DNA of 64,000 nucleotides from assembly GCA_964234715.1 (NCBI GenBank), contig OZ174276.1; one strand, 5' to 3'. Each line of letters starts with the position of its first letter. Position 1 is the first letter of the stretch. This DNA comes from Podarcis melisellensis (taxonomy: Eukaryota). The translations under genes and the position numbers were made by a program. Below, in pieces: positions 44,151 to 55,715 of this stretch. Below the pieces are notes generated by a model that ran no database searches, had not been told where the DNA came from, and worked only from the letters and a program-made list of their open reading frames with translations.

Positions 44151-44866
44151 TGCTGTGCGCCACCCAGATCCACATTCAAAGCTTATTGAAGAGAAAATTG
44201 CTGTTTCTGCCTAAGAGTTATAAACTTGTTAGATGTGGATGTCTTTTGTGGATGTGTATTACTATCAGGCAGTGAGAGATTTTACTTTCTTGGGCTCCAT
44301 GGTCACTGCAGATGGTGACAGCAGTCACAAAATTAAAAGATGCCTCCTTCTTGGGAGAAAAGCAATGACAAACCTAGACAGCATCTTAAAAAGCAGAGAC
44401 ATCACCTTGCAGACAAAGGTCTGTATAGTTTGATGCTTTTGAATTATGGTGCTGGAGGAGACTCTTTTGAGAGTCCAATGGACTGCAAGAAGATCAAATG
44501 TATCCATTCTTAAGGAAATCAGCCCTGAGTGCTCACTGGAAGGACAGATCCTGAAGCTGAGACTCCAATACTTTGGCCACCTCATGAGCAGAGAAGACTC
44601 CCTGGAAAAGAACCTGATGCTGGGAAAGATTGAGGGCACAAGGAGAAGGGGACGACAGAGGACGAGATGGTTGGATAGTGTTCTCGAAGCTACCAGCATG
44701 AGTTTGACCAAACTGCAGGAGGCAAATCAAATCAAATCAAATCAAAACAAAACTTTATTAGCAAAGCCAACAGGCCACAGCTATACAAGAGTTAAAAGTG
44801 AAAATAGGGATAAAAGGAAGAAAAGAACAAGCAAAAGGAGGTCCGTCAGATGAACAAGTCTGTCAC

Positions 44867-47800
44867 TCAGATGGTGGCCCTCAATTTCGCAGCTCTCTCG
44901 ATGTACCTCGCGACCTTCTCTGTTATCTGACTATCCGTATCAGATAATAGAAAATACAGTGTAATGTCTGGTGAACGGCCGGGGTTGGAGAGAATGAGTG
45001 GAGTAATAATCTCGTTCCTTAGGTCTTTGTAAAGGGGGCAAGATAGAAGGACGTGGGACACTGTTTCCGTGTTACCATCTCCACATGGGCAAAGTCGTTT
45101 TTCAAATGGAGTCTTTTGGTAACGACCTTCGAGTACAGCAGAGGGAAGAACATCCCATCTAGCCAATGTAAAGGCACGTCTGTATTTTGGGATGGTTAGT
45201 TTAAACAAATATGAAGCTGGAGAGTCAAAATGAGAAGGGGGAAAGTAGGTATACCATGGGCACAGTTTCTTTAAGATAATCAGGTTGTTTTGTCGTTCAA
45301 TGTCTTTCAGGCGCTGGCCTATTAGACTCTTTGCTTTAATGAGGCCCATTGATAGTAGGGACTGTGAATGCAGACCGCATGTAAGGAGTTTTTGATGCAC
45401 AGTTTTGAACCACTTGCTTTTGTGAGGGTCTTGCATTACTAGAGGCAGTAGACCAGGTGGATTTAGATTAAGACGAAGCCAATAGTTGAATGTTCTCTGC
45501 CAGGTCTGAGTTTCTACAGATGGAAGGCAGGCCTCGAGTCGTAATGCTGCGTTTGGAACACAGGAGGGGACGCCGAATATCTGCCTTAGAAATTTAGACT
45601 GAACAGTTTCAAGACTGGAGCAGTGGTTCCCCGTCCAGATTTGTGCCCCGTACAGTAACTGCGCCAGAGGTTTTGCTTGAAAAACTTCAAGGGCTGCTGG
45701 GATGTATCTGCCCCCCTTCGTGTAAAAGAAGCGGGACAGCATCTTGATACTTTGAGCTGCTTTTTCTTTGGCACATTTTTGATGGACATCCCAGGACCCG
45801 GTCGACTGGAAAACGATACCCAGATATTTGAAGGCTTTAACCTGTTCAATTGTCTGGTTATCCATCCTCCAGCTGTACTGTCTGTGTTTCCTTGCAAAAA
45901 CCATAATTTTGGTTTTCTGATAGTTTATTGCAAGTTGCTCTCTCCTACAGTATGCTGAAAATTCACCTATGAGCCTATTTAAGCCTATTCTTGTTCGAGA
46001 TAGGAGTATCGCATCATCAGCATACAAAAGCACTGATATTGATTTGTCAGCCAGTTTGGGGGCGTGGAAGTCCGGAGATGACAAACAGTTAACCATATCA
46101 TTGATGTAGATGTTGAATAGAACTGGGGCCAGGATGCAACCTTGCTTGACCCCCTTACTGACAGGAACTGGTCCTATAAGATGGCCATTTAACGAAGTTC
46201 TTACATGCAGCACCGTGTCTTTATATAAACAGCTGATCAGAAATAATAGTCTTTTGTCAATACTTGATGTGCTCAATTTATCCCAGAGTCTTACACGTGG
46301 AATTGAATCGAAAGCAGCCTTTAGATCGATAAAGGCTGCATATAACACCCCACGGGATTTTTTGGCATATTTGTCAATTAAATAGGCTAGGGTGAAGCAA
46401 TGGTCTATGGTGGATCTGCCTTGCCTGAAACCCGCTTGCTCTTCCGCTAGAATAGCTTCAGTTTCCAGCCAGCTAGTTAGCTTGATATAAAGATGTTTGG
46501 CATATAGTTTGCTGGGTATAGGCAGAAGGCTGATTGGTCTATAACTCGCCGGGTCTGTCATCGGTCCTTTTTTATAGATTGGGATAATTATTGCCTCAGT
46601 CCAACCATCTGGGAGTAAACCCATTGAGTCGATCCAAGAAAATAAAGACGCCAGCAGGGGGGCCCACCAGCCAATGTTGGACTTCAGAAGTTCGGCAGGG
46701 ATGTAATCATTCCCTGGGGCCTTGTTGTTCTTTAATTGTGCGATTAAATTCTCAACTTCCTTTGCAGTTACTGGTGGCCAATGAGGTAGGTCCTCCAATT
46801 GAATGCATAGTTTGTAATGTTGGGCTTCCTGGTCATAGAACAAAGATTGAAAATGGCGCAACCACTCCATTGGTTCCACTGTACAGATGGAATTAGTACG
46901 CTCCTGGTCCAGTAGACCAGATATGGTTCGCCAAAAGCAAGTAGTATCTTTCTCGTGCGATGCCTTAACCAAACTGTGCCATGCGGCTCTTTCAGCTTCC
47001 AGTTTCTTTCTCCTTAGTAATTGTTTGTAAGACCGTCTCAGATAAATATAAGCATTAAGTAGGAGGGCAGTCCCTGATTTCCTGTATCTCTGGTAGGCTG
47101 TTCTCGTTTGTCTCCTTGTTTGCCTGCACTCCAGGTCAAACCAGCTAGCTCCGTCCTTTGCCCTCTTTGTAGCGGAGCTATGTATCACTGTTGTTAAATG
47201 GGGTTTCAATCTTTCCAAAAGTAATTTAAAGCGTTCCATAATCGCATCTACTGAATTGCCTGATACAATAGCGGAGCGAATAAGCTTTAACTCCACTGAC
47301 TGAAGAAGGAGGGTTAGATTTTCATTCAGTATTGGGGACCATTTGAGTCTTTTGGGGGCAGGTATATCCAAATTTACAGAAGGTATATATTGTGGCTCGG
47401 CAATAGAATAGTCAAAAGGCCGACCTGCAAGCTCTAAAATTAGAGGTAGGTGATCACTCAGAGTATTGTGGCCCACTTGGAACTTCCTTACAAAGCTGTG
47501 AGCAAATCTTGAGATTAAGATATAATCTATAACGCTTCCCCCAGCCTTGGAGAAATGAGTATATTCCCCGGGGCGGTCCCCCTCTATATTGCCGTTTAAT
47601 ATCAGCAGTTCCCTCCGTCTGGCAGCCTGCACTAAGCAGAGACCTGGGAAATTACTTCTACTATCTTTGGACAGTCATGTCGCACCAATATCCGTCTGTT
47701 CTTCAGGGTCCATAAATAGGTTGAAATGAGTGTATAGACTGTTGTCATCTGTTCCTATACGAGCGTTGAAGTCTCCACACACAATAGTCAGGGCAGACGG

Positions 47801-48277
47801 GTAAGTAGATTCGAGAGGCTCTAAAAACGCCTCTAGCTCAGCCCATGTAGCCTTGACAACGGGGTTTTTTTGGCCTGGGGGAATATAGACATTGACCAGC
47901 AAGAGAGTAGTTCTCTTGAAGCTAAGTAGAGCGGCTGTTGCTAAAGAATTGCAGCTGGGTAGGGCTGTTAGAGAATGCGCCAGCTCCGTGGAAATGAAGC
48001 AAGCTAGGCCACCACTAGATCTGCCGCCCCTTAGAGATGGAGAGGCAGGCAGGTAGTGGCAGTTATACCCATTAAGAAATATAGGGTCATTCTGCCATGT
48101 CTCCTGAAAGAAGATGATGTCAAATTGCTTAAGGTAGCACAAAAATTGTTGATTATTTTTCTTGGCGTGCCAACCCGCGATATTCCAAGACAGCACTTTT
48201 AGGCCCCGGGCCCTTCGGGGAGCTGGATCTATGTCACCACCACGTCCAGCGATTCTTTGGTGTCTAAAAAAACACAC
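44867..48277 (-). pseudogene. LINE ORF2 polyprotein: APE endonuclease + reverse transcriptase + CCHC zinc finger, interrupted by one in-frame TGA (47675-47677)
   Basis: ORFs 47675-48277 and 44867-47632 are in the same frame. APE motifs: LSWNIAGW, FQETW, VNVYIPP, GDFNARIG, SVIDYIL, LSDHLPL. RT motifs: KAPGND, YRPISLL, QAGFR, FIDLKAAFDSI, GVKQGCILAP, LYADD, FKYLG. C-terminal CPCGD-ETVSHVLLSC. The junction reads IGAT*LSKDSRSNFPGLCL. Confidence 0.95.
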
Positions 48278-49735
48278 CCGTTGGCTCTTTTCGAGGATGA
48301 CTGCTTGGAGAGAGTGTAGTGATCCTCTTTTCTTGGTGATTTGGGGCTAGATTTTGGAGTTGGGGGGGAAGCTAATTCATTCGGAGACAATTTAAGATAG
48401 CTGTGCCAGGAGCTTTGAGGTTTCACACCTTGATTTGGTCTTACTTTATTGTACATCACAGGGGGCTCAGATTGTAATTCCACGTCTACACATTTAAAAG
48501 TGCCTCCCACTGTCTTCTTATCCACCAGACATTTGGGAGATATGGGCTGCACATAAGGGTCCTTCATTGTCTCACCTTGATCATCCTTTTTTTCTAGTCT
48601 GCTTCGAAGTAAATCAAGTCTTTTCAGGATCCCAGTTTGAGCTGGAGAATGCAGTGACCAGAATCGCTTTATCAGCGAGAGTTCTTCCTCCAAAGCGGAG
48701 TCCTCACTATCACACGTGAGAGGCCAGACGCCAGTTGGATGTGGGGCTTCTTTTTTTCCATTTGGTACTGTTTGATGGAGATGATCCTGCTGGAACTTAT
48801 GCTTTCTATTTCGATGGTTTTGGTGGTTGGTTTTTTCGCTTTTGTGAACTTCCATTCCTATGCCCTTGGGCCCCATCAGAGAGGTTGCAGGTGCTCTATT
48901 TTCAAATATTCTTAATAGGACTATTCTTTCTTTTTTGAATAGGTTTTTAGCTCTAAAAATGAAACTGGCCAGATTATGATCTAAAAAAGTAATCAATGCT
49001 CGTACCGAGCAATCATCTTGATGTAGATACTCAATAGCGGCTATGTCAGTTGCTTTTACTACCCCCGGTAAAATGCCACTTATAATGGACAAAAAGTGGT
49101 CTATACGGTCCAACCCTGCATAAAATCTAGGCGGTTTAGGGTAATTGGCAAAGACAAGCTTTTGTGGGATTAGGACTAGACTCCATTCTCTTTTGGGACA
49201 CAACATCTGTCGAGCTTGGGAGGAGTGGTTCCCCTCAATAGTTTGGGTCGCCTGCTCACCTCTGTCTACAGATTCTGCGCTGGCCATAAGAGGACTCTGG
49301 GGCGGTATGACTGTAGATGGATTAGTTCCTTTGTCCCAGCTCGGTGTTGATTCTTCAAAACTTGATTTAGATTCTTTTATGGGTGTATCTACTTTACGTG
49401 TCTCTTTGATGGCACTCGAGTTGGATTTGTTTGTTCCACTTGTAGAAGGGGATGGAAGAAGGTTGAAGAGCTTCTGCCAATATTTTTTACAGGTACGGTG
49501 AGTTGTCTTAAGCCGCCTTAGGTTTTTCATATTTTTGCTTTTCTTCATCTTAGGCTCAGCTTTTTTCCTCCGGGGTTTGCTGGGGAGTGGTGGATCCGGG
49601 CTGGCTAGGGGATTTGTATTCTGGTCTGAAGCGCTCACATGTTGTTTGAAATTATCCACTAGGGTCAGGAGCAGCCCGTTTGTTATCGCTAAAAAATTTT
49701 TAACGTTAAGGAGATCCGTAGAAATCTGGTATATC
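48229..49735 (-). CDS. LINE ORF1 (about 500 codons, open up to the element 5' junction; putative RNA-binding/chaperone protein)
   Basis: Uninterrupted frame directly upstream of and overlapping ORF2, lying inside the TSD-bounded element. It has basic and S/P/K-rich disordered segments and a central globular-looking domain (LVFANYP...RALITFLD...VLLRIFEN). The first 19 aa of the listed ORF (49791-49736) are antisense Bov-B/TSD sequence. Confidence 0.8.
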
Positions 49736-50514
49736 CTGCAGGAGGCAGTGGAAGACAGGAGTGCCTGGCATGCTCTGGTCCATGGGGTCACGAAGAGTCG
49801 GACACGACTAAATGACTAAACAACAACAACATTACTATCAGGACCTCCCAATATATTTTGCTGTCTGAGGCAACACATACATACTCACTGGACAGGTAGC
49901 TGTAGTATTTTAATGGCTAGATTAGTGCCATTCAGTCAGTATGTTGCTGCCTTTGGGTTGGGTTTGGATGTTGCAGTTAGTGCCTGGACTTTGAGGTCAT
50001 TGGGAGATTCCCTTCTGATGTTGTCTCAGTTTTGTAGGATACAGTACATGATGACTCTTGAGAGGGCATTCTCATAAATGATGCCCTGACTCTCAAATGC
50101 CCTCCCCTCTCAAGTAGGTGTGAGCAGTATCAACACTGATGGAGTTTTGTTGCCAAGTAAAACTGTAGGCAATTCACCTAAACATTTTACTAAAGCAGCC
50201 CCGCTCACTTGACTGATACACTTTTGTTGTTAATATATTATCCATTCTTAAGGTGCATTTAAATGAAATATTGTTTTAATGTTGTTTCTCACTTTGGGGT
50301 TGTGTGAACCAAGGAGAGTGGGTTATAAATAAAGAATAAAATCCAATAATATGTACATGTTATTGTTAGTTATAGTAATCATAATTTGATTTCTTACCTG
50401 GCCTTCACCTTAAGGTCCCAGTGCAGTTTACATGTAAAAATACAATATTAAAAACAGTTTAAAACAAATTAGTCACCAGAATAGGGCAGAACGTATGAAA
50501 GACACGCATAAGAT

Positions 50515-50899: not shown

Positions 50900-52991
50900 A
50901 GGACTGCAAACAGTTCATGTGTGTACGGTTAATATTGGTCACTGTCATCCCCTGTTGTCTCTAAACTCCATTTTAAGCAACAAACATTTGAATTGTTTCA
51001 TTTCAATCCAATGTTTGTCAGATGAAGAATACAAGAAGATAGTGGTTTAGAAGATGATTCATAAATTGTAATACAGTAATAATATCCATTTTGATCATAA
51101 AACTTGATTTTTCTGATTAGTGCTAAAAAGCTTATTTTATTAATAAATGCATTGAAGGAACAATCTTTTTAGTGCCAAGTTGAATTCTACCTGATGTTGG
51201 AAAATGCCAAACCTTCCACTCCAACCATTGCCACTGCTCACCAAACACTCAGGAGTGATTTTGCCATGCAGGATCACATCCTGCATGCATTGCAGCAGAA
51301 CAAACTGTCCCTGTGCACATTGCATTCCACTACAATTGCCAAGGGGAAGGGGATGTTCACAGTCCCTGCAGCCAGTGAGACTGAGGCCTGACCATTAACT
51401 CAGAATTCAGGTAGCACCAATCTAGACACTTCAGGAAATCTCATGACAGTTTAACGCTATTGGCGGTTATTATTTGTCATATGCGAAATTGCTCTCCCAA
51501 AGTTTTAGCATTTGGAGCTGAGCAACTGTTTGGCACAGACAGCTGGTTATCAAGAATGAAAGATGCCATTTTTCAAACCTGTTGGATGGTGAAGATTATG
51601 TAGCCCTAGAAGTTGCAAGCAGGACCAGTGGTTGGGGACTATGGGAGCTGTAGTACATCAACCACTGCCCCCCGCCAAGCCACACACACTTTATAACCTG
51701 CAGCCTTTAGTGGCTTGTGCCTTGTGTCATGGACACCTAAATTCCAGGCAGCCCAAGACATTTTGGCACTTGAAGCAAACCAGATAAGAGTGCCTCCTCC
51801 TCCACCTGCCTGCCCTCGCCAGGAAAGAAAGAGTAGGTGAAGATCTACACCAGGAACAAGGGGTGAAGACAGACAGACATCAGGATCTGCTGTCCCTGTG
51901 GATCCTTCCACTGGAGGTGCTCGCCTCACCTGGCCTCATGGATTGGCTAGTCCTGCATTGAAATAAGCTATTAAATATTTGGAAGGTATTTAGAAAGTAA
52001 AAGGCAGATGAAATGTTGACTATCTCTCTAAAATGGTCTCCAAAGACCTCCATCTGAGCCATCAATAGTAAGGGCTAATATGATTCATGAGAATCGGCTT
52101 GCATTTTGCCTTCATCAAGCGATCTGATAGTATCCGCAATTTTTATCCTGAGTACATAAAATGGGCTTAATTTTATATAAAGATTCCCTGTTACACAAAT
52201 AATTTATGTTGGTTCCCTTCCCAGATATGTTAATGACAACCTCAATATGCACATGCAGTATTTGCATTTCCCCTTCTAATTATGTGTTTCTAAGAGGAGC
52301 TCTAGAATTGCAGCAGCACATTAGTCAATTCATGGAACTTGGCTTTTCCCAGACTCGCTTGGCTATCTTTTAGGAGCGCTTCAAAGAGTCCTTAAACAAA
52401 CTTTCCTTTCCGAGTTTGGCAGCATGAATTAAATTTGTCAATATAGCTGGCTGTCTTCTGTCTGCTTTAAGCTACATTACTAAAATCTGCATTTCATTGG
52501 AGGATTTCAACTGCTTCCACAATGCAGTCAATATTTCTGTGAATATTACCAGCTGGTACATTCCTTTAGATAAAGAAGAAATGGCCCCATTTTTAATTTT
52601 ACAGAGCACAACCCATTCACAACATTCCAGATGAAATAACTTTTGTCTTCACTGGGAATTTTGCAACCATTCATCTATTTTCAAATGATAAATAAGGATA
52701 ACAGCCATACAAGTTTAGCTACAGCGATCTAACAAAAAGTGGATCCTCATACAGGTATCTGTTTGGAATAATCATACACCTGCTTGGACATTGGCCCTAA
52801 AGACAATACATTTATATGAGAGCTACTTTCACGTACTAGCCTTGATCCAACTAAAGTTAATTGGACTTAATTGCCAGGAAATCAACAATGGGGTTTAAGT
52901 TAAGTTGTTCGATTTGCGAAGGCAGCTAACTTTAGCAGGACTGGATATCCTAGTTTCAGGACAGAGTACACGTCTGTACTGAAATCCATGA

Positions 52992-53638
52992 CAGTGGACA
53001 CTCGGGTTGCGAACGTGATCCGTGCGTGTCAGGGAACTGCCATCAGGGCCGGAGGGAGAGAGCAGGCTCCGGAGGGGTCTCAGAGAGCGTCCCGGGATGG
53101 GGAGAGGCAGCCCATCTTCTGGGGAAGAGAATCAGCGTGGCACCAGTGGAGAAGGGGGGCAGATGGGGGAATCGGCGAGGCAGTCCCATGACTCCTTGCC
53201 AGGGACCAGCGGGGAGAGTAAGGGTCCTCCTTGCACAGAAGGCTTCCGCGCAGGGAGAGTAGGAGGAGACTAGGCGTCAAAGAGCTTCTTTGCTGGAAGA
53301 AGTTCAAGAAATGCCCACTGACGGATACTGCCAGCGATTGAGACAGCCACGGGTGAGTGGCTGTCCGGACAGAAAAGGTTCACTCAAGCAATCCAGCCAG
53401 GTGTTGCACCGTTTTACGCATGAGCAACCCCTAGAACCATTACAGTGCGGGAGGCATGTCTGCGCACACACGGGTCGCGATTTGGCACTTCTGCGCATGC
53501 GCCAAGCACAATTTAGTGCTTCTGCGCATGCGCGAGTGCCGAAACCCAGAAGTAACCCGTTCCAGTACTTCCGGGCTCGGCGTGGTGTGCAACCCGAAAA
53601 CGCGCAACCTGAAGCATCTGTAACCCGAGGTATGACTG
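52992..53638. mobile_element. Tigger-like MITE, family B-related, interrupted by a solo LTR
   Basis: Ends CAGTGGACACTCGGGTTGC and TAACCCGAGGTATGACTG followed by TA. Interior resembles 25014-25258 reversed. Confidence 0.82.
53027..53444. mobile_element. Solo LTR (Gypsy/ERV-type), 418 bp
   Basis: TG...CA termini (TGTCA / TTACA) and a perfect 5-bp TSD GTGCG (53022-53026 and 53445-53449). Confidence 0.85.
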
Positions 53639-55715
53639 TATTTGCACTCTCAAGTAAGAACCAAACTACACATTACATCCATCTGAATGTGAGTAGAGTC
53701 TAAACCCCTCCCTCTTTTTCCTTTGTTTCTTTTTTGACTTGGAAAAGCACTTCACAATTGAAGAGGAGGTGGCAGAGGAAAGGCTAGTAGTAAATGTACT
53801 ACCTATTTCTCATTGTTTTCTACTCCAGTGTGCCATCTGATTTAGTATTATACCTTAGTTGAACTTATATTTATTTACAGTCACTCGGACAGCCAACCTT
53901 ACCCCATATGATCCTTGATACACCAAGGTGCCAAAATAGGCAGTCTCAGAAGGATGCTAGCGGGGTGCGGGGGGAGGTCCCTGTAAAGAAAGATATGTAA
54001 ATGAATGTCTGAGAACTGTGGTTAAATGTGGTGTATTTTCACCTGAATACACTGAATAAGTTACATTTGCAGCATTGTTGGCTCTCTAGAGGGCCTTCTA
54101 ACGTCGTGGTTTGTATGTATTACACTCCTGCATAACTAGTTGTCTGTGTGCCTGGAACATTTTTTCCCCTTATAAATGAAAAGATTTTAATTTCGCACCA
54201 TAGTTGTCTTGCTATTCCAATCTTCTGAGACTGATTTAATCAAGTGACAACAGTTGTGGCGTTAGCTTAGCCTGCTCATCCCAAAGTTCATCCTTTTAAA
54301 TTTCAGTTCCACGGGAATAATACACAGCGAGTTTTTCCCCTACGATGATTTGCCTGTTGCTCAAGTCGGTGACCCTTTGCATGAATGTATTTAGGGCTCC
54401 AAAGATCAGGCAGAGATAAAGGAGAAGCAGGAAATGTAGCGCTCCAAGAGACATTTATACGGAGACAGTTTTTGATTAATAAAACCATTCTGCTGCTGGC
54501 TCGTTATAATTATTTATGGAGCATCTTGAGTATACATAGCACGTTACACAACTTGTAAGAAGACTGAGTTCATGCCCTGAGTAGCTTTCAGTCTAATGGA
54601 AACACAATACAGTACTCAAGGTAATTGATAAAACACAAGAGTGGTGTTGAGATCATCCAGATTTACAAGGGTAGGACATAGGCACACCATGCAACTAACA
54701 ATGGTGGGTGACAGGGAGGACACCATTATCTTGAAATCGGCCAGCAACACAACTTATTGTATTGGGATACTCTAAATGCAGTCCTCTCTGAGATTTGGAT
54801 CTCACAACTTTGGAATTTAATTTTAATGGACAGGAAACATGACAACCCATGTCCAAGAGAGTCAAACAGACAAGAAAACCGCTACTTTTCAATCAACCTG
54901 GCATAGTTTTATCACATAAGCAACATCAGTGGAACATGGTTATAATAGGCCTCCGAGAACCGCATGGCAACTTGCAGGATGAGACCTTCATTTCAAAACC
55001 GAAATGACCAGTCACCCTGGGAGAGGGTGGGGTTGTTGAATATGGGTGGCTGCTTCTTGTACAAATAAGTGAAAACAATGAAATATGTGGGGAGATGGGA
55101 TGTTGCTAGAACTGCAATGTATGGAATATACAGAGCTGGTGGGATAACTGGAACCGAAATCTGCATAGGCCTACCAAGTATGAATTTATTCCTCCAGAAG
55201 ATGCATAGCTTCTAGTGCGTTTTAAAGAATAGAGCAGCTGGACGAGTGAGGTTGTTTAAATAGCACACTTCAGCCAAGAAAACAACACACATCCAAAGAA
55301 AAGAATCCCACTGCAATTCATTCTCGAGTGCAGAGGTTAAACAGGGAAATATTCCAACGTTCACTAGAGGAGGTTTGCTTGAAAGGGGTCACTCGAAGAG
55401 CCAGCTTTGTGCTGTCAAACATAACCGCAACATGGGAAGTAGTGAATCTAACGGCGGGGTCAACAACTGGAAGTCCCCTAGTGACCCTGAACCATTCATT
55501 TCCATTGGGGGCCATTGAATGCTTCCGATTGCTGGCTGCCTGGGATAAATGATAGCACTGCATCGTTCTTAGAGCATGTCTTGCCTGTGAATGTCCAAGG
55601 TCATCACTGGAGATAGATTGCTGTGCTTGATGGATCTTCCTTTTCTAGCTCAGCAGCCTAGTTACTGTGCATTTACTGATACGCTTCACAATGTAGCAGT
55701 TCCCTAATCTGGGAC

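Follow-up and report, generated by a model that had tools for sequence, protein, structure and literature searches.

ORF2 of the very young LINE family found in this Podarcis melisellensis DNA, family A, is probably made by a programmed -1 ribosomal frameshift at the heptamer U_UUU_UUA, a reading to which we give a probability of roughly two in three on the conservation of the junction. The junction itself is real and conserved, and it is most likely a recoding site, in a class of elements without established recoding. We suggest that a minority of ribosomes would slip by -1 at U_UUU_UUA, giving a predicted ORF1-endonuclease-reverse transcriptase fusion of 1,761 residues (629 from ORF1 and 1,132 from ORF2) beside the 640-residue ORF1 protein, and that this fusion would be the working enzyme; no protease is encoded. 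Frameshifting would explain the slippery codons, their fixed spacing, the open linker and the missing ATG, and it matches the fusion implied by the sister families.

The element in the window and its ORF junction

The element lies on the minus strand of the window, i.e., the whole stretch of 64,000 nucleotides that was analysed. Its features are:

44713..44724, minus: target-site duplication, 12 bp, 3' copy
44725..44760, minus: 3' end with AATAAA and a (TTTGA)n tail
44725..49735, minus: family A copy of an APE-type LINE, 5'-truncated
44867..48346, minus: ORF2 frame, 1159 codons
47675..47677, minus: private TGA breaking ORF2 of the window copy (CGA elsewhere)
48203..48264, minus: linker, -1 frame open in A, A2, A3 and A4, both frames coding up to the ORF1 stop
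48204..48262, minus: stems CACCA/TGGTG, GCTGGA/TCCAGC and CCCCG/CGGGG, present in family A
48229..49735, minus: 3' part of ORF1, 501 codons plus TAG (48231-48229)
48263..48275, minus: 13-nt block GTGTTTTTTTAGA, invariant across four lineages
48265..48271, minus: slippery heptamer T_TTT_TTA, in phase with ORF1 and 69 nt upstream of endonuclease codon 1
48347..48349, minus: stop upstream in the ORF2 frame
49736..49747, minus: target-site duplication, 12 bp, 5' copy

ORF2 contains an endonuclease from 48202, a reverse transcriptase and a C-terminal Cys/His motif. Its Pfam matches, PF03372 (endonuclease) and then PF00078 (reverse transcriptase), identify an APE-type LINE, and the hallmarks of such elements are present: a target-site duplication, a simple-repeat 3' tail and 5'-truncated copies. 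ORF1 has no Pfam match and its Atlas scores are all below 0.8, but a homolog is annotated in Zootoca vivipara, and the motif NG[SC][VI]F[LV]D..G.LD.[VI] at its end is common to the sister families. With two ORFs, an APE-RT architecture, a C-terminal Cys/His motif and a microsatellite tail, the clade may belong to RTEX (RTE-X), which it resembles; the label is tentative, as our trees hold unnamed proteins and ORF1 lacks a Pfam match. The nearest named proteins come from Podarcis, Anolis and Zootoca, and word-index protein searches returned near-identical proteins and one Zootoca ORF1, nothing else. The annotated proteins of the clade begin within the endonuclease, which a recoded fusion, if true, would explain.

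Family A is very young, with at least 40 places at 97-100% identity after scoring 40 of 75 candidates. The window copy ends at 49735 on its 5' side; other copies reach about 1.1 kb beyond this point, and from these the full length is about 6.1 kb, with an ORF1 of 640 aa after a leader of about 700 nt. ORF2 is broken in the window copy by the TGA at 47677-47675, a codon that reads CGA in 29 of 30 copies. The element is inserted in an older repeat, whose sequence flanks it on both sides (44560-44712 and 49748-49830) and carries on from one copy of the target-site duplication to the other; the repeat looks like a BovB/Sauria-type 3' end. Elsewhere in the window, at 52954-53703, GC-rich sequence holds overlapping frames of 100-146 codons on both strands, which have no Pfam match.

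The reading frames at the junction are as an earlier note on this DNA had described them. ORF2 is in the -1 frame relative to ORF1, and the two overlap from the ORF2-frame TAG (48349-48347) to the ORF1 TAG (48231-48229). ORF1 reads GTT TTT TTA GAC, which places T_TTT_TTA at 48271-48265 in X_XXY_YYZ phase, and the -1 frame continues with AGA CAC CAA into LKVLSWNIAGW. ORF2 also starts without an ATG: the first one in its frame is at 47713, codon 212 counted from stop to stop, i.e., about 184 codons after the heptamer and 163 codons inside the endonuclease.

Conservation of the heptamer and of its surroundings

The heptamer alone is within chance, as ORF1 contains two further T_TTT_TTA in phase, from which the -1 frame reaches a stop after 14 and 11 codons. 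In the sequences compared here, the feature that goes beyond chance is the conservation of the heptamer, not its presence.

We analysed 67 distinct family A loci. Five of them lack the site through truncation or deletion; the other 62 cover it, and every one reads TTTTTTAGA and is free of indels between -5 and +70. These loci were picked by similarity, so divergent junctions may be under-sampled, although an endonuclease-only search also fed the list. In a gap-free contig from a second organism, 2,210 nt across the junction show 31 substitutions and 0 gaps.

Protein searches of the genome yielded the older lineages A2 (two copies), A3 (four), A4 (one) and A5. A, A2, A3 and A4 are mutually 59-68% identical in DNA, and in all four GTGTTTTTTTAGA stands exactly 69 nt ahead of the endonuclease. 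With 13 nt it is the longest invariant run in about 1.2 kb, the next longest being 6 nt. Elsewhere in the four lineages, one codon is kept at none of 18 conserved Leu positions, at 4 of 45 fourfold sites and at 21 of 52 twofold sites; a rough multiplication of these site rates gives about 2 in 1,000 for a chance coincidence of the three free codon choices in the heptamer. The counts are based on A and A2-A4, A2 being represented by two copies and A4 by one, both old, and copy L121 is atypical of A5. In the four lineages the heptamer is thus conserved beyond protein constraint, the exception being A5. In the in-frame sister families D and F this protein motif is encoded by the non-slippery codons ATC TTT GTG, which means that protein constraint does not force the heptamer codons. 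The ORF1 end motif NG[SC][VI]F[LV]D..G.LD predates the frameshift layout.

The T7A run, the -1 register and the missing ATG, whose conservation the earlier note had proposed to check, are all kept in the 62 young copies and in the three older lineages A2-A4. The linker of 23 codons is open in the -1 frame in A, A2, A3 and A4, apart from one A3 copy with a stop at the last codon and another with a 1-nt loss at the start of the endonuclease; as a background, the -1 frame of ORF1 is open in 56 of 602 windows of this size. In A2-A4 the ORF2 frame closes 3-5 codons upstream of the heptamer; the open stretch contains no ATG. The ORF1 stop lies at +1 (A2-A4), -14 (A5) or -29 (A) from the start of the endonuclease, and its shift between +1 and -29 has left the heptamer unaffected. 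An AUG close to the ORF1 stop and upstream of the endonuclease core is absent from family A and A2-A4 but present in A5.

A5 is an old, star-like family with branch lengths of 7-10%. At the site, six of nine copies have T5-6 followed by at least three A, two have T6-8AGA and one has T6AAG; the variant with T5-6 and an A run puts a TAA in the -1 frame. In 8 of 10 copies endonuclease codon 4 is an in-frame ATG, which follows an earlier ORF1 stop by about 20 nt. This fits a loss of the shift site with a start codon compensating for it, but the founder state of A5 is uncertain because T/A boundaries are mutable. Together with its place inside the -1 clade, the lack of the heptamer in most A5 copies counts against the frameshift. 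So does the position of the heptamer within a conserved ORF1 protein motif, as do its two further in-phase copies in ORF1.

Two old A3 copies (L089 and L103) encode almost the same protein as an intact Podarcis muralis ORF2, P0154 (tree distance below 0.1), and family C (L069) is likewise nearly identical to the database protein P0009. A close host or horizontal transfer may lie behind this near-identity.

The downstream RNA does not show the same conservation. The stems named in the earlier note exist in the window copy, but they are fully paired in family A only: in A2-A4 the first keeps 1-3 of 5 pairs, and in A2, A3 and A4 the second keeps 1, 2 and 5 of 6 pairs and the hairpin 5, 2 and 3 of 5. 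A check for stem conservation found no conserved helix above a column-shuffle null, with 14 helices of at least 4 bp common to the four lineages against a null mean of 11 (gapless, +1 to +200). Folding z-scores over the first 50-80 nt after the heptamer range from -0.8 to +1.3, and the four lineages have no conserved stimulatory structure 5-9 nt downstream of it. A hairpin over the first endonuclease codons recurs about 65 nt from the heptamer; it may be a by-product of the LSWNIAGW codons. The proposal of an ORF1-ORF2 fusion made by frameshifting therefore keeps its T7A run, register and missing ATG but loses the H-type pseudoknot as a feature of the element. The missing conserved stimulator is the main gap in the frameshift reading, and a stimulator may be lineage-specific, distant, protein-based or absent. 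Protein-assisted frameshift sites with long spacers are described in cardioviruses (PMC7618472).

Recoding in the relatives and in known systems

Seven sister families in the same genome (B, C, C', C'', D, E and F), with about 40% identity in the endonuclease, keep ORF1 and ORF2 in one frame, interrupted by a single TGA. The junction reads UGA CUA in 30 of 30 loci of family B and in 29 of 30 of family E, UGA CAA in 21 of the 27 loci fetched for family C, UGA AAU at two places in family D and UGA AAG in family F (3/3). The other six of the 27 loci comprise one with UGA CUC after a 6-nt loss, C' and C'' (both UGA CAA), one truncated locus and two without an endonuclease start. Five of the seven families thus have C after the TGA, two of them as UGA-CUA. 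UGACUA and UGACGG are type II viral readthrough motifs (PMC13517186), the first of which stands in frame between the ORFs of B and E, and certain retroviruses of fish and frogs have UGA-A contexts (PMC13517186). No ATG precedes the endonuclease in B, C, C'', E and F, where the first Met codons come at +362 (B), +86 (C), +93 (C''), +20 (E) and +85 (F); family D has a Met in the linker. The folding z-score downstream of the UGA is about -2 in B, with no signal in E or most of C. It is likely that the sister families join their ORFs via a single stop in a leaky-type context, for which readthrough is predicted, and the in-frame UGA-C junctions give independent support for an ORF1-ORF2 fusion.

Family B copies, which do not differ from one another over the junction, are strongly concentrated on contig C19, where about 14.5-37.5 Mb holds 19 of the 40 places listed. 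The linker of family D has 59 codons in one of two loci and 89 in the other (L076 and L211), an in-frame difference of 90 nt that leaves the ORFs in frame.

From metagenomes, 80 loci were collected, 43 of them with a locatable endonuclease start. In 35 of these 43 distant LINEs a Met stands at the endonuclease start or upstream of it, in mixed frames. The nearest relatives are in frame, with UGA CUA (L278 and L343) or UGA CUG (L280); their ORF1 ends in a related motif, GDL.[ED]V.D, and their long linkers contain Met. Another relative, L295, is in frame across UGA CGG and has no Met. Readthrough is ambiguous in D, L278, L280 and L343 because of the Met codons in their linkers. In two other loci (L283:480-550 and L299:960-1030) ORF2 is in the +1 frame, its endonuclease is not preceded by a Met, and a TAA overlaps the ORF1 codons CTA AA[CT], possibly a further mechanism of ORF2 entry. 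In two distant LINEs (L279:300-345 and L310:140-172) TAG G or TAG A separates ORFs that are in frame, again without a Met upstream of the endonuclease.

Trees were built with FastTree from a query-anchored alignment, leaving out fragments under 90-100 residues, and rooted on a distant protein. The -1 group forms one clade (support 1.0) nested among the in-frame TGA families, and the metagenome UGA-CU group falls just outside (support 0.90); deeper nodes are weak (0.5-0.8). From its spread across the families we infer that readthrough is ancestral. In the wider clade, readthrough of an in-frame UGA would then have produced this fusion from the start, and the present branch could have replaced readthrough by a frameshift site made from the codons of an older ORF1 end motif. 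We hold it slightly better than an even bet that this active vertebrate LINE clade makes an uncleaved, gag-pol-style recoded fusion, with UGA readthrough (ancestral), a -1 frameshift (this branch) and an AUG restart (A5) all at one junction.

The closest likeness is to HIV-1 gag-pol, which uses the same U_UUU_UUA heptamer in the same phase (PMC7618472), with a structural ORF first and an enzyme ORF in the -1 frame without its own start. HIV-1 differs in having a stem-loop, whereas family A is a non-LTR element with no conserved stem-loop and no protease, so that a fusion would stay whole. Retroviruses are also split between readthrough, as in MoMLV, and frameshifting, as in HIV-1 (PMC13517186), and the LINE clade likewise appears to have both modes at the same junction. 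Type II readthrough viruses such as alphaviruses (UGA CUA or UGA CGG) share the exact hexamer with families B and E (PMC13517186); the two families, however, are LINEs, in which downstream stimulators would be putative.

The earlier note implied that -1 frameshifting lacks a precedent among LINEs, which is too strong. According to a figure legend in a review, Dictyostelium TRE5-A and TRE3-A need a -1 frameshift for ORF2 (PMC5911963). By this statement they are like family A in being APE-RT LINEs with a -1 need, but they are amoebal and target tRNA genes, whereas family A is from a vertebrate and has a conserved canonical heptamer. In Paramecium, consensus sequences led to the proposal of a +1 frameshift or reinitiation for LINE groups 1 and 2 and of readthrough for group 3 (PMC5405496). 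ORF2 entry thus also varies within one clade there, but the host is a ciliate, the shift is +1 and not -1, and the part of that paper at hand names neither a slippery site nor a UGA-CUA context. A review of frameshifting names, in the first 300,000 of its 449,034 characters, only HeT-A and TART among non-LTR elements (PMC5009743), and the accessible parts of PMC11203168, PMC5753468, PMC8310308 and PMC5006619 hold nothing further on recoding in vertebrate LINEs. We found no vertebrate LINE with a -1 frameshift or UGA-CUA readthrough in the literature covered; subscription journals, Repbase or supplements may describe one. A point against the frameshift reading is that rat L1 makes no ORF1p-ORF2p fusion (PMC2241872).

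If true, recoding would physically link the enzyme to the coat protein made from ORF1, with their ratio set as in retroviruses, and would offer a simple route to cis preference. It would also expose the elements to host inhibitors of recoding, e.g., Shiftless (named in PMC13517186). The clade offers natural controls, as one and the same junction exists in versions with readthrough, a frameshift or an AUG, and both frames are open in dozens of near-identical copies, so the question is directly testable.

Other routes to ORF2

To our knowledge, how the scarce production of LINE ORF2 is achieved is settled for only a few elements, all of which use reinitiation into a separate protein. Mammalian L1 and silkworm SART1 use termination-reinitiation (PMC5972666) and thereby provide a precedent for the same route in family A, i.e., a restart after the ORF1 stop at a near-cognate codon such as the CTG at endonuclease codon 4, or a nearby GTG or TTG, with the heptamer incidental or serving another role. 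We regard this as unlikely, although it is the most serious of the alternatives. L1 and SART1 resemble family A in having a bicistronic LINE RNA and a low ORF2 output, and A5 has an ATG about 20 nt past the ORF1 stop; they differ in having an AUG near the stop and separate proteins, whereas the first 163 endonuclease codons of family A include no AUG. ORF1 stops at +1, -14 or -29 are within the tolerance of viral reinitiation (PMC5972666). A, A2 and A3 have CTG at codon 4, where A5 has ATG; this shows that the codon might act as a start and so aids this explanation, but it is CTA in A4 and free to vary in the in-frame TGA families (CTA, TTA, CTG, TGT or ATA), and a start there would presumably leave three residues ahead of the conserved Asn. 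A GTG start at 48277 was considered and rejected, being present in all 62 young copies yet GAG in A2-A4. A restart also leaves unexplained the invariant slippery codons, the fixed spacing of 69 nt, the open -1 linker and the seven in-frame TGA families, all of which the frameshift, with readthrough in the sisters, would accommodate.

Splicing is less probable still. The AG of GTGTTTTTTTAGA doubles as a candidate 3' splice acceptor (TTTTTTTAG/A), from which a spliced subgenomic RNA would supply ORF2 with an in-frame AUG from further upstream. The T run and the AG behind it are indeed conserved, splicing would likewise keep the linker open and free of indels, and A5 keeps the AG at the same place, where its TAA would fall in the intron. 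However, 62 loci cross the AG unspliced and the 5' breakpoints of the 17 loci examined lie elsewhere, A2-A4 have another AG about 14 nt upstream, and the in-frame UGA-C families are left unexplained. Under the cis preference of L1, spliced genomic copies would be common.

RNA reads bear on this as well. In three runs, of which 12-13% each was sampled, 50, 158 and 37 reads matched the element, mostly in the orientation that means sense RNA if the libraries are stranded, with depths of 0.8, 4.1 and 3.7 over the junction bin. At this junction depth of about 1-4, the RNA matches listed for the three runs contain no splice joints and no indels in the ORFs, and 38-54% of the matched RNA sequence runs on into other sequence. 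These data speak weakly against splicing or slippage as the main route. By transcriptional slippage we mean the addition of one U on the T7 run, which would give an RNA with a single ORF; although the homopolymer sits at the change of frame, T8 is found in none of the 62 genomic copies, when such RNAs should be the ones copied, and no insertion is listed here in the reads (at low depth), making this explanation very improbable. Finally, the caveat in the earlier note that T7 could be a copy-specific or assembly indel in one long ORF, homopolymers being error-prone in assemblies, can be dismissed, as the register is kept in 62 of 62 copies, in three older lineages and in the gap-free contig of the second organism, and in the older lineages the -1 frame meets a stop 3-5 codons ahead of the heptamer.

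One young copy (L122, C87:142300-149500) carries an internal deletion of 738 nt that fuses ORF1 in frame to the middle of the endonuclease in an open frame of 1,740 codons. Its ends show microhomology and no GT-AG, and it was rejected as a product of splicing. The RNA reads and the contig of the second organism share substitutions against the young family (L054:5298-5402, 5797 and 5851), so the copies transcribed in those runs come from another subfamily or population.
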